DNA of 59,263 bases from a virus (taxonomy: Duplodnaviria; Caudoviricetes), in the IMG/VR virus record IMGVR_UViG_3300037096_000007, positions 1 to 59,263 of that record, one strand, 5' to 3'. The notes under the pieces are model-generated. The model did no database searches, was not told the DNA's origin, and was given only the letters and a program-made list of their open reading frames with translations. Position 1 is the stretch's first letter. Every line of letters begins with the position of its first letter. A program made the translations under genes and the position numbers. This document shows positions 1 through 29,075 of the stretch, in pieces.

Positions 1-105
1 GGCGCCACTTGATTCAAGGTTTAGGCCAGCAGTAGGCGAAGCGTTCGTAGAGTTGATTGCTAAATACTGAGCGCCGGAACCAACTACGTTGACGATGCCG
101 GAACC
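1..105. repeat. Exact copy of 2971-3075 (left contig end)
   Basis: Direct comparison: identical from ggcgccacttgattcaagg to gatgccggaacc. Confidence 0.95.
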
Positions 106-1203
106 AATGGTTAGTTCAGACGTGCCAACAACAGTGGTTCCGCTCGCGGCATAATAAGCAACCTGACCTGCTGTAGCAGCGGTAACGGTGCCACCACCAC
201 CACCTGTCGTGCAGGGACCACCAGCGTCTATAAAGTTACCGCTATTGATCGAAACGCAGTCCCCGTTTATTAGTGTTCCGGTAGCAGTAGCAAATTCTGT
301 CGTGCTGCCACTGAGAGTACCCTGAGCGATTGCCGATGTGCCATTTCCGATAAGCGGCAAGTTACTGCTGAATGTCGTGTCACCCGTGCAACCATGAGCC
401 ACGCCGCAACTACCCGTCAGCGTGACATTACTCAGTGCGATGGTGAATCCTGTCGTGGCCGTTCCAGTAGCGAGCGCACCAACGGATGTCAGCGATGACG
501 TGACGATGCCAGATGGCAATGTCGTGCCGGTTATACCGGAGGCTGGAACCGATACCGCAGCCATCGCGCCGTTACAACCAAAACCGCTATTCGTTGTCCA
601 TGTCAATGCATTGGCCGCGCCAGTACAGCCCGAAATAACTTGCGCTGTGATCGGTGCCAGAACGCTTGTCGCGTTCACAAGCACCGAATTTCCGGGCTGA
701 GGCAAAATGCTTGAGAGTGGAATGCCGGAAACGATTGATGATGTCGATATCTGATAATTGGAGCCATCAGATATAATCTGAACGGTTTGCCCTTTCGCCA
801 ATACCAACGTGGACGAGCCACCGATTGTCGATGCTGTTGGCGTGATCGTGACAGCCCCATTCCCAAGATTTGAAACATAAGTGTTCCAAGTCAGGAATGG
901 GCCTGTTGCTTGTGGCAGAGCAACAGCGATGGGACTCGCATTATTGAACGTAACGAATTGTCCGTAGTCGTTGACGGATAGCGTATATGTCGTTCCAGTT
1001 TGTGCATTGACGCCAATGTATTGCTGATAGGAATTTATCAGAGCGTCAAAGCACGCCCTCGTTATTGCCGGTGTAATCAATCCCGAATTTTGATCCGGGA
1101 AACAACTCGCAATCTGGGTAATGATCGCAGCCTTCGTCGTCTGTGCGTGCGCGGGAAGCGCCACAGTCAGAAATCCGAAAACTACTAATATGATGCGAAG
1201 CAT
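1..1203 (-). CDS. Tail fibre/tailspike A, N-terminal 401 codons; continues across the contig break into 57474-59263
   Basis: Absent from the ORF track because it runs off the contig edge. ATG at 1203 reads MLRIILVVFGFLTVALPAHA|QTTKAAIITQIASCFPDQNSG..., colinear with the 1210-4173 protein up to LNLESSGA at position 1. Signal-peptide-like N-terminus. Confidence 0.85.
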   Translation of the reverse strand, partial: MLRIILVVFGFLTVALPAHAQTTKAAIITQIASCFPDQNSGLITPAITRACFDALINSYQQYIGVNAQTGTTYTLSVNDYGQFVTFNNASPIAVALPQATGPFLTWNTYVSNLGNGAVTITPTASTIGGSSTLVLAKGQTVQIISDGSNYQISTSSIVSGIPLSSILPQPGNSVLVNATSVLAPITAQVISGCTGAANALTWTTNSGFGCNGAMAAVSVPASGITGTTLPSGIVTSSLTSVGALATGTATTGFTIALSNVTLTGSCGVAHGCTGDTTFSSNLPLIGNGTSAIAQGTLSGSTTEFATATGTLINGDCVSINSGNFIDAGGPCTTGGGGGTVTAATAGQVAYYAASGTTVVGTSELTIGSGIVNVVGSGAQYLAINSTNASPTAGLNLESSGA

Positions 1204-1209
1204 ATCGAC

Positions 1210-27540: not shown

Positions 27541-27633
27541 AGGCGGTTCCCAGCTAGGGTGCGGGGAGTGGGGATGGCCGGGAACCGCCTAATCGCTACG
27601 CTGGCTTGGTCAGGGAAGGCGAACGCAGCGATA
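27541..27633 (-). ncRNA. Two long hairpins with C-rich loops (candidate sRNA/terminator)
   Basis: AGGCGGTTCCC/GGGAACCGCCT 11-bp stem; ATCGCTRCG/CGYAGCGAT stem. Confidence 0.35.
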
Positions 27634-27638
27634 TTCGA

Positions 27639-29075
27639 TCAGAACTCAGCACTTGCCCGGAAATATGCGGTTGTCGTCGAGCCAAGCGTCCACAGAAAGC
27701 CTCCCGTGCCAGCTGCCCCGAAGCCAGCGCTTGACGCACAATCCATGATTGCATTCTGAGTGCTCGCCGCCTGACCGGAGAGCGTGGCGCTCAGGGTAAA
27801 GCCAGTGCAAGCAGCCGTTGACGTGCTGGCCGTGGTCGCGGATGCCGCAAAGCCTGTAGTGGAGCTAATCGTCGGCGCAATCCGCATAGTCACAGGGAAC
27901 TGAATGAGACAGTTCGCAATGCTGCTGGTGCTGATTGAACATTGACCAACGCTATACTGCGTGGTCGCATTGTCGGCGATTTCGTAAAATAACTTCTGCG
28001 CTTCCGCTAAATCCCAATAACCAGGATGGAATTCGTAAGCGGTCGGGCTAGGAGCTACCTCAAGCTGAGCGCCAGTCCAAGCGAAGCCGTCCGTGGTGCC
28101 CGAGCCGGAAGCGGTCGGCGTAAAGCAGATTTGAACGCCCACCTCAGTTGCGGTCGTGGGGATCGTGCCTGTCACCGAATAACGAGTCGGCGTCGTGGTG
28201 ATGACAATCGGAGCCTGATTGACCGCAGTACCAATCCCCGTCCACGCCGGCGTAATAAGAGGCGACGTGGAAGGCGTTTGAATACCCTGATCGCTGCCGG
28301 TGCCGTAAATGACCGACAGCGTGGTCGTGTTGTTGTTATCGGCGGCGAGGCCGGCTAGCGCGGCTTCATAAACGCTCAATGTCACAGTCTTGCCAGCAAG
28401 CGCGGTGCTCGCAACAGCGCTGATTTCCTGCGTTGCGCAAACTGGCTGGGTCAAAGCGCCAGACGTGCGATAAAGCAGGTTGACATTCTGAAATCCGACC
28501 GGGAGCAATGCCGCCGTGGTAACGAGCGATGAACGGCCGGCACCAGATGTCACATTGGTCTGACACGCCCAGCGATCAGCACCATACACAGCCGTCGTGG
28601 TCGTGCCACATGTCACGATGCCAACGCCGCGCTGCTGGATATTCAGCGAGCCATTGTCGAGATAGTTGCGCGGGGTGCCGCTCATGTTGGCGAGCAATGC
28701 GCTGGGAATCGTCCCCGTTTGCATCGGAGCACCACCTTGGGCGGTGGTTATGGTGCTGGCTAGATTGGCGTCAGCCGGGATGGCCTCGTTGCCCGTAATG
28801 ACAGCCGGACCAGCCGGGATGGTCTGGGCGCAAATGGATGATCCGGTGCCCTGCGTAGAGCCGGGAGACACGCCATAAGGCCCCTGCGACGCAGGCAGCG
28901 TCGTGCCGCTTACGGTCGAAGCGCAGTATGAAGGCTGTCCATAAATCGGCAGAGTTGACCACAACCCAGCCGCATCGGCCGAAATCAGCGAAATCTTGGC
29001 AGGCGTGAGGGTCATGCAAGCAACCGCAACGGCAGAAAGGCCAGCGGCAATCAAACCCATGCGAGTTCGATTCAT
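27639..29075 (-). CDS. Tail-fibre-type carbohydrate-binding-domain protein with signal-peptide-like N-terminus
   Basis: RNYLDNGSLNIQQRG...ADRW, AQLEVAPSPTAYE, FPVTMRIAPT and ASAEF are hallmarks of a common phage fibre C-terminal domain; AAGGAG RBS. Confidence 0.7.
   Translation of the reverse strand: MNRTRMGLIAAGLSAVAVACMTLTPAKISLISADAAGLWSTLPIYGQPSYCASTVSGTTLPASQGPYGVSPGSTQGTGSSICAQTIPAGPAVITGNEAIPADANLASTITTAQGGAPMQTGTIPSALLANMSGTPRNYLDNGSLNIQQRGVGIVTCGTTTTAVYGADRWACQTNVTSGAGRSSLVTTAALLPVGFQNVNLLYRTSGALTQPVCATQEISAVASTALAGKTVTLSVYEAALAGLAADNNNTTTLSVIYGTGSDQGIQTPSTSPLITPAWTGIGTAVNQAPIVITTTPTRYSVTGTIPTTATEVGVQICFTPTASGSGTTDGFAWTGAQLEVAPSPTAYEFHPGYWDLAEAQKLFYEIADNATTQYSVGQCSISTSSIANCLIQFPVTMRIAPTISSTTGFAASATTASTSTAACTGFTLSATLSGQAASTQNAIMDCASSAGFGAAGTGGFLWTLGSTTTAYFRASAEF

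Follow-up and report, generated by a model that had tools for sequence, protein, structure and literature searches.

Predicted Sec signal peptides on the tail fibre and tailspike proteins of an uncultured P22-like podovirus lineage

In the 59,263-bp genome of an uncultured podovirus (IMG/VR record IMGVR_UViG_3300037096_000007, analysed over its whole length and called the window here), seven genes for tail fibre, tailspike and small companion proteins open with leaders that resemble Sec signal peptides. The record is linear, coincides with the window, has a CheckV completeness of 100 and is a complete P22-like podovirus genome record. On our best reading, the seven products are a receptor-binding set that consists of a tailspike (fibre C), two paralogous fibres (A and B), an S74-type fibre, a tail-fibre-type protein (SP478) and two small companions (SP157 and SP132). 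Judged from their sequences, the leaders are very probably real and predicted to direct Sec export and to be cleaved; loading of the products onto particles is slightly favoured. We give about an even chance to the full account, in which genuine type-I Sec signal peptides on receptor-binding proteins lead to export, oxidation in the periplasm and joining to particles after the holin has acted. The leader trait marks large, uncultured families and is wider than the original prediction for this DNA had stated.

The leader-bearing ORFs (open reading frames), as translated, are:

1-1203, minus strand: fibre A, N-terminal part (401 aa), with a leader at residues 1-20 (AHA, cut before Q), a conserved N-domain and a fibre with paired cysteines
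57474-59263, minus strand: fibre A, C-terminal part, a 590-aa ORF (57474-59246) plus five codons to the contig end
1210-4173, minus strand: fibre B (987 aa), with a leader at residues 1-19 (AHA, cut before Q), an N-domain at about 20-160, a fibre and a tip
4175-6082, minus strand: fibre C (635 aa), with a GTG start and a 25-residue leader ending in AFA, followed by Q-ATLLPPGEQ
14000-14473, minus strand: SP157, a small leader protein encoded between a gp4-like gene and a gene for a 359-aa protein (12917-13996)
25830-26939, minus strand: S74-type fibre (369 aa), in which a leader precedes a fibre rich in Gly and Thr and the C-terminal domain resembles an intramolecular chaperone
26923-27321, minus strand: SP132, a small leader protein with two cysteines, whose homologues in two other loci (L185 and L143) keep their leaders
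27639-29075, minus strand: SP478, a protein of tail-fibre type with a leader at residues 1-35 (ADA, then AG) and two beta-sandwich domains that are CBM-like

Leaders were sought with a rule-based scan that required an n-region with a non-negative net charge, an uncharged h-region of at least 8 residues with a mean Kyte-Doolittle value of at least 1.6, and small residues at positions -3 and -1; a score of at least 4.5 defined a strict leader. Eleven of the 74 window ORFs reached this score. In the controls, the rate was 0 of 1885 for internal 60-residue windows taken from the ORF products and 0.4-0.8% for shuffled N-termini. The leaders are far above chance. The eleven comprise the seven named proteins (scores 4.55-5.85, h-regions of 12-16 residues, no twin-arginine motif in any of the seven) together with 25604-25798, a 64-aa membrane-type ORF, and the ORFs at 53130-53744, 55826-56446 and 57211-57477. 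The original prediction had described seven fibre or decoration proteins with basic-hydrophobic-AxA leaders, which our translation reproduces as quoted, and had set them apart from leaderless portal, coat, scaffold, gp4, gp10, needle and ejection proteins. Indeed, the portal, scaffold, coat, gp4-like, gp10-like, needle-position and ejection ORFs were all left unmarked by the scan at the strict score.

Such leaders could be artefacts, either because the true starts lie downstream or because hydrophobic stretches arise by chance. Several of the leader ORFs do start without a clear Shine-Dalgarno (SD) motif and fibre C starts with GTG, as might be expected of misplaced starts. The empty internal-window control speaks against chance, as do leaders in hundreds of independently called homologues. 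Downstream starts had been proposed as a test of the idea, and no in-frame ATG, GTG or TTG with an SD-like motif was found near the predicted cut of any of the seven leader ORFs. In addition, the stop codons of the upstream genes abut the leader start codons (gaps of 1 nt for fibre B and 6 nt for fibre A), and the conserved domain begins at the cut, so that a later start would truncate it. We consider an artefact scarcely credible. A dual start that gives a leaderless cytoplasmic isoform was likewise unsupported, since no SD-preceded internal start lies near the cuts.

Leader conservation and cysteine content

Conservation of the leaders in homologues had been proposed as a second test. A HMMER search with the first 330 residues of fibre C against 1.84 billion representatives (E<=1e-3) returned 4765 proteins, and a strict leader was present in 104 of the best 150. 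Within these 150, leader-bearing forms have an AxA cut followed by ATLLPNG(E/K)Q(Q/C)F, and the clearly leaderless relatives begin M-ATLLPNGKQQF... Cleavage of the leader-bearing forms would therefore leave the very N-terminus with which the leaderless ones start. Among the 120 listed homologues of the S74-type fibre, 91 carried a strict leader, and most of the others were borderline or N-terminally cut. For SP478, 364 homologues were found, and all 120 of those listed had a leader match (108 strict). Their conserved mature start, AG(N/L)WSTLP(I/V)VG, places the SP478 cut at ADA, AG, after residue 35, where the original prediction had also put it; our rule-based scan had chosen residue 19. A lipobox-like string occurred in just 4 of the 120 SP478 homologues, and the idea that this protein is a lipoprotein was rejected.

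Fibre B gave a similar picture on a smaller scale. Its first 200 residues retrieved 19 proteins, the 10 closest of which share the mature N-domain. Nine of these ten have a full leader of quite different sequence that ends in AxA followed by Q; in the tenth, the leader itself is truncated. The residues on either side of the cut, A19 and Q20, do not vary across the alignment of these closest homologues, and the conserved N-domain starts directly at the predicted cut. In the deposited phages, tblastn with fibre B gave a single weak partial match, to a Pelagibacter phage, and with SP478 a single weak match, to the Cyanophage S-2L tail fiber.

Fibre C has recognisable relatives among deposited phages. 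Its residues 140-210 matched 25 deposited phage records by tblastn, largely the phages that also match the window's coat protein. In the four closest (PAE2, P4282, X14 and P26218) the N-domain shows 45-54% identity over about 60-70 residues; PAE2, X14 and P26218 are coat-protein matches as well, and P4282 is not. Nine of the 25 records were examined (Shewanella X14, Rhodoferax P26218, Ralstonia P4282, Pseudomonas PAE2, Vibrio D478, Vibrio 41E34.2, Vibrio 1.211.A, Thalassomonas BA3 and a Manatee Spring podovirus), and in all nine the protein is leaderless; five have an N-terminal ATLLPNG-type motif and the other four a divergent leaderless N-terminus. The X14 copy is annotated 'tailspike protein' and the P4282 copy 'bacteriolytic protein'. 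As the domain and its position are common to the leaderless tailspikes of this clade, fibre C is the clade's tailspike orthologue with a signal peptide added in front. Inside its tailspike N-domain, fibre C also has an insert of ~100 aa (residues about 35-135) made of a Gly-rich module, GGSG..GTY..V.LTGGSGSGA.ANITV. The same module occurs in tandem in two database proteins, with 13 copies in P0169 and 11 in P0231.

Leader state was mapped onto a FastTree tree of the fibre C N-domain (112 columns; 149 of 155 rows, six being dropped where the BLAST match missed the domain start). Parsimony gave 11 changes of state, of which at least two fall on well-supported branches. Because the tree is poorly resolved, we claim only that the leader has switched more than once.

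Exported bacterial proteins favour even cysteine numbers because of disulfide formation, as described in the accessible part of the source (PMC7678975). Cysteines were counted in the mature proteins, with leaders removed. All seven window proteins had even counts (8, plus 16 in the C-terminal part, then 14, 4, 2, 4, 2 and 10, in the order of the leader ORFs listed above), and the 14 cysteines of fibre B lie in close pairs. The four ejection-region proteins, including the product of 6149-8473, contain no cysteine, unlike the cysteine-rich fibres. The numbers of homologues with even, odd or zero cysteines, which come from related proteins and are not independent counts, were:

SP478 family (counts of 6, 8, 10 or 12): even 120, odd 0, zero 0
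Fibre C family, leader-bearing: even 91, odd 11, zero 2
Fibre C family, rest: even 21, odd 21, zero 4
S74 family, leader-bearing: even 87, odd 4, zero 0
S74 family, rest: even 11, odd 12, zero 6
Fibre B family, leader-bearing: even 14, odd 2, zero 0
Fibre B family, leaderless or cut: even 0, odd 3, zero 0

In the SP478 alignment the variable cysteine columns come and go two at a time: agreement is seen in 119 of 120 rows for columns 88/124, in 119 for 135/146, in 118 each for 234/258 and 510/521, and in all 120 for 554/560 and 586/591. To judge by the alignment, the paired columns behave as disulfide partners, a pattern that partly escapes the problem of kinship, and even, paired cysteines of this kind are a predicted mark of disulfide folding outside the cytoplasm. 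Export through Sec, which the original prediction had inferred, is thus backed by leader conservation, by the agreement of the cut with the start of leaderless homologues and by the even and paired cysteines.

The N-terminal segments might instead stay uncleaved, either as signal anchors of the signal-anchor-release (SAR) type that hold the proteins at the inner membrane until lysis or as a cytoplasmic assembly or oligomerisation helix. The SP478 leader is unusually long, at 35 residues, and SAR endolysins are a phage use of releasable anchors, according to the accessible part of a review (PMC6116005). Several features make such retention improbable. An AxA lies at a fixed distance past the h-region, with the invariant A19 and Q20 of the fibre B family, and the mature N-terminus corresponds to the first residues of leaderless homologues. 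The h-region lengths are typical of cleaved signals and not of membrane-spanning anchors, and the even, paired cysteines point to the periplasm.

Gene position, folds and attachment to the virion

All structural genes lie on the minus strand, and PHROG matches name several of them:

22833-25598, minus strand: large terminase (PHROG match)
20647-22833, minus strand: P22-type portal (PHROG match, E 3e-87)
16953-18212, minus strand: coat (PHROG match, E 1e-51)
14487-15260, minus strand: gp4-like tail accessory factor without a leader (31% identity, E 2e-41, to PAE2_7, itself annotated as pfam11650, P22 tail accessory factor)
12917-13996, minus strand: 359-aa protein with a weak DUF2824 match, adjoining SP157
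11412-12917, minus strand: gp10-like tail hub protein without a leader (phrog_578, E 2e-77; 66% identity to the copy in prophage L084)
10219-10956, minus strand: ejection protein (PHROG match)
6149-8473, minus strand: largest ejection protein (PHROG match), with a cell-wall hydrolase domain of the SleB type at its N-terminus (PF07486, E 6e-17)

Fibre C starts 66 nt past the last ejection gene, and fibres B and A follow it at the short gaps given above. The same arrangement recurs in the nearest prophage, on a 634-kb contig (L084) of a Xanthobacteraceae metagenome-assembled genome (MAG), where homologues of SP157, gp10, a needle-position ORF, an ejection protein, fibre C and fibre B lie in this order. 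All four leaders are present there; the SP157 homologue, at 41% identity, keeps its own. SP478 as a single-protein query for related loci found no relative, and an alignment query found homologues on 61 IMG/VR loci. In five of the seven loci inspected, a leader-bearing SP478 homologue lies just upstream of the terminase/portal/coat block. An SP478-like match was also found in 6 of 401 genomes of the class to which the Xanthobacteraceae MAG belongs. By the coat protein, Pseudomonas phage PAE2 (47%) and Acetobacter phage phiAX1 (37%) come nearest among the deposited phages, and podoviruses of Vibrio, Rhodoferax, Shewanella, Thalassomonas and Xylella come next; megablast with 10 kb of the window found no nucleotide-level relative in the deposited phage collection.

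Searches of Pfam and PHROGs at E<=0.01 gave no match for fibres A, B and C, SP157, SP132 or the S74-type fibre, the one exception being a weak match of fibre A to a PHROG of unknown function. A model of the fibre A/B N-domain (predicted local distance difference test, pLDDT, 76) has two helices followed by a beta module. The beta module matches the N-terminal regions of Solidus gp83 (from an Acinetobacter phage) and CBA120 TSP4 (residues 1-335), and further a Pa223 capsid spike, a KP1 baseplate chain and T4 gp9, all at E values of 6e-5 to 2e-2, query TM-scores (TMq) of about 0.45 and about 100 columns. A relative of this module (residues 64-150) is common in viral contigs, being encoded by 273 of 600 pattern matches; among the 80 loci kept with the module, 11 have a strict leader and the rest carry it inside leaderless fibre proteins. 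An ESM Atlas search with the fibre B N-domain returned unnamed viral clusters only, and we treat a match of 0.89 there to the T4 gp9/10 N-domain family as no more than a lead. No Pfam match was obtained for the C-terminal part of fibre A, whose composition resembles that of a beta-helix depolymerase, perhaps of the pectate-lyase-like kind.

SP478 is better placed among known fibres. Its C-terminal 345 residues match phrog_4492 'tail fiber' (E 2e-21). Its model (pLDDT 71.5) shows CBM4/22-like beta-sandwiches and has matches at E<=1e-3 to 210 viral models, many of which bear the name tail fiber protein (best E 2e-28, TMq 0.63). The S74 label that the original prediction gave to the product of 25830-26939 stands by homology and not by Pfam. 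Against PF13884 (Peptidase_S74) this fibre scores 12.7 bits, under the cut-off of 22 and without a match at E<=0.01; it is 54% identical over 129 aa to a database protein (P0330) that scores 26.6 bits, and the domain is present in 14 of the 120 listed homologues. The exact SDxxxK motif is absent, with SSLEEMK (Ser...Lys) at the aligned place.

Together, position, synteny, folds and N-terminal modules support virion-attached tail fibres and tailspikes, in line with the virion appendages proposed originally, a proposal that also gains from the N-domain homology to tailspikes of deposited phages. The gp10-like hub (11412-12917) is the probable docking partner of the spikes. If the proteins are exported, we judge it rather probable that they end on virions.

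Exported proteins could also serve off the virion, as free depolymerases, as factors that destroy or mask receptors, as decoys, or as adhesins on the infected or lysogenic cell like the mosaic adhesive trimer (MAT) fibres of Bdellovibrio. Export itself is well supported by leader conservation and by the even and paired cysteines, and free, non-virion depolymerases are known in phages. Moreover, the sole solved relatives by sequence are MAT surface fibres (8OND, Bd2133, with E 4e-5 for fibre B and 7e-5 for the fibre A C-terminal part, plus 8OJN), and the layout of MATs, so far as the accessible text describes it, is shared. On such an account the virion would be left without a receptor-binding protein: Pfam and PHROG scans of the ORFs found no leaderless fibre-like candidate in the window, in which the other large ORFs encode the terminase, portal, coat, gp10-like and ejection proteins, the 359-aa protein with the weak DUF2824 match, two unassigned 272-aa proteins and replication proteins. 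Fibre C also keeps the tailspike N-domain of its clade, at the 45-54% identity given above, and an N-terminal module of tailspike type is retained in fibres A and B. The three fibre genes form part of the late structural block, at a spacing of 1-6 nt. Promoter- or terminator-like sites showed no excess over shuffles around the fibre genes and were absent from the fibre intergenic gaps, and the GC content of the fibre genes (0.52-0.58) is like that of the rest of the genome. A purely secreted role is therefore unlikely in our view. A moron or lysogenic-conversion gene was rejected on similar grounds, there being no promoter or terminator of its own and no deviant composition.

Attachment to the virion would require a specific order of events. 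Late in infection, the proteins would be threaded unfolded through SecYEG and the leader cut at AxA. In the periplasm they would trimerise and form disulfide bonds, a step that the cysteine patterns support. In P22-type phages, DNA-filled particles with the gp4/gp10/needle hub accumulate in the cytoplasm. Here too, such particles would wait in the cytoplasm. When the holin opens the inner membrane, the pools of spikes and particles would mix inside the still intact outer membrane, and the spikes could then bind the hub via their conserved N-terminal modules. The likely gain would be extracellular fibres stabilised by disulfides. The original prediction had also suggested that export hides these proteins from cytoplasmic sensors, and nothing in our analysis speaks for this.

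Several points weigh against this account. Export, cleavage and presence on the virion rest on indirect evidence, and the leaders were called by our own rule-based scan, not by SignalP or another trained predictor. Assembly of tailed phages is otherwise cytoplasmic, and mixing after the holin has acted is brief, so that spike binding may be too slow. The deposited phage collection yielded no cultured phage of the leader-bearing lineage, and all nine deposited tailspikes examined are leaderless. As for the cysteines, kinship of the homologues limits the counts, odd numbers occur in 11 of 102 (fibre C) and 4 of 91 (S74) leader-bearing homologues, and disulfides could instead form after release into oxic surroundings.

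Taken to the level of the lineage, the proposal is that a large, uncultured group of P22-like phages builds its virion in two compartments, with heads and tail hubs formed in the cytoplasm and the entire receptor-binding apparatus in the periplasm until the holin acts, and that gain or loss of a leader on the tailspike N-terminus has switched the route more than once. We advance this tentatively, as somewhat short of an even chance. If true, a tailed phage would have a second assembly compartment and with it a new dependence on host Sec, signal peptidase and Dsb; the cysteine richness of the fibres would be explained, and the trait would have a simple sequence marker. Since the fibre C N-domain family is large (4765 representatives) and, with its leader, absent from the cultured phages searched, the trait may be common in environmental viruses and unseen in models. 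Annotation pipelines may drop such fibres as 'host secreted proteins', and recombinant fibres or depolymerases of this kind may need periplasmic expression. The finding would also connect the fibres of phages with the MAT fibres that predatory bacteria secrete.

A separate observation concerns Acetobacter phage phiAX1 (L082), an induced prophage. At 26418-27383 it encodes a 321-aa fibre-like protein with a leader that ends in ...ALAFA followed by Q, and the gene sits between a gp4-like gene and a leaderless 606-aa tailspike-like gene. This phage could be a cultured entry point to the leader trait. The accessible part of the phiAX1 paper contains no virion proteomics (PMC8566455).

Other genes of the window

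Fibre A is divided between the two ends of the record. Fibres A and B share 76% identity over 401 aa and are identical over the last ~40 of these. The first ~100 nt of the window (region 1-110) are an exact repeat of a fibre B stretch that starts at 2971 (region 2971-3080). The far contig end (59246-59263) reads in frame NDSEIMRITAV..., matching fibre B from residue 431, and the C-terminal part of fibre A shares 56% identity with fibre B residues 437-691. From the shared repeat and the match at the contig end, we conclude that the assembly broke in a repeat common to the paralogues, with the loss of ~29 codons of fibre A. Because the break lies in the A/B repeat, directly joining the two contig ends into a circle does not keep the reading frame. 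The genome behind the 'linear' record is circular or permuted and was broken at a paralogous repeat.

The large terminase ORF is unusually long (921 aa), and its N-terminal third has separate terminase-type and weak primase/helicase-loader PHROG matches. Among the replication genes, 33303-34709 (minus strand) encodes a 468-aa protein with PAPS-reductase (E 7e-13) and DUF3440 (E 2e-33) domains.

The remaining strict leaders, apart from that of the membrane-type ORF, fall in a region to which we assign lysis roles by position and weak matches:

53130-57477, minus strand: putative lysis region, with three further leader ORFs (53130-53744, 55826-56446 and 57211-57477)
54382-54873, minus strand: ORF with an N-terminal membrane helix
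56561-57214, minus strand: leaderless GH19-like endolysin candidate (weak match)

The ORFs at 55826-56446 and 57211-57477 flank the endolysin candidate, one being Thr/Pro-rich with a later hydrophobic helix and the other 88 aa long with a coiled C-terminal half; they may encode lysis or spanin-type proteins. In the 204-aa product of 53130-53744 (minus strand), a His-rich stretch (HPRHHHHHYRHHY) comes straight after the leader, and the protein may bind metal in the periplasm. His-rich, leader-bearing homologues occur in two other loci, L030 (15952-16365) and, by eye, L147 (3234-3770). In a related 62-kb viral contig (L130), small ORFs at 5143-5523 and 6831-7193 have twin-arginine-type leaders (SRRSFITGLGALFIAAPAIVRA and similar), which suggests that proteins predicted to be Tat-exported occur in the same phage group.

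Comparison with known systems

A full-text search, with most subscription journals outside its coverage, found no description of signal peptides on tail fibres or tailspikes of tailed phages. The tailspikes of the P22 family and of the leaderless clade resemble fibre C in their position after the ejection genes and, within the clade, in the N-terminal domain. The clade tailspikes examined begin directly at this domain, whereas fibre C and 104 of its 150 nearest metagenomic relatives have a leader, with paired cysteines. According to the accessible part of one report, the tailspike is the final component to be added in P22 assembly and can be joined to tailless heads in vitro (bioRxiv 10.1101/2021.09.20.461090).

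For late phage proteins, Sec export is established in the case of endolysins, and Sec or SAR endolysins and spanins share with the fibres late expression and the Sec route and location outside the cytoplasm until the holin fires that are predicted for the fibres (PMC6116005, accessible part). In contrast to the role proposed for the fibres, endolysins and spanins are lysis proteins and not virion parts, and the Sec passages in the accessible part of that review concern endolysins, not tail fibres (PMC6116005).

The N-terminal region of CBA120 TSP4 (PDB 7REJ) matches the beta part of fibres A and B (E 2.5e-4, TMq 0.45, 104 columns), and several spikes per virion are a trait of CBA120 and, as proposed here, of the window phage. 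The N-terminal domains of TSP4 dock other spikes, and TSP4 has no leader. In filamentous phages, the coat and adsorption proteins g8p and g3p are virion parts that carry signal peptides and assemble outside the cytoplasm. Those phages are non-lytic, filamentous and extruded through the membrane, whereas the window phage is tailed and icosahedral, with cytoplasmic heads.

Of the architectures described so far, the MAT surface fibre of Bdellovibrio comes closest. MATs have a signal peptide, a conserved N-domain, a trimeric fibre and a variable tip with or without S74, and full-length Bd2133 formed fibres when expressed from a PelB-leader construct (PMC10769870, accessible part). Fibres A and B share with MATs, as described there, the leader, an N-domain of ~130-140 residues, the long fibre and the variable tip; the solved MAT entries (8OND and 8OJN) are C-terminal parts, and the N-domains were compared by layout only. 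In the same account the MAT N-domain is beta-rich, whereas the fibre A/B model has two helices and then beta-strands. MATs are also chromosomal genes of the predator whose products are displayed on the cell surface, whereas fibres A, B and C occupy the phage tailspike slot in a late operon. What is new here is the proposal of a different biogenesis route for otherwise known tailspikes and tail fibres.

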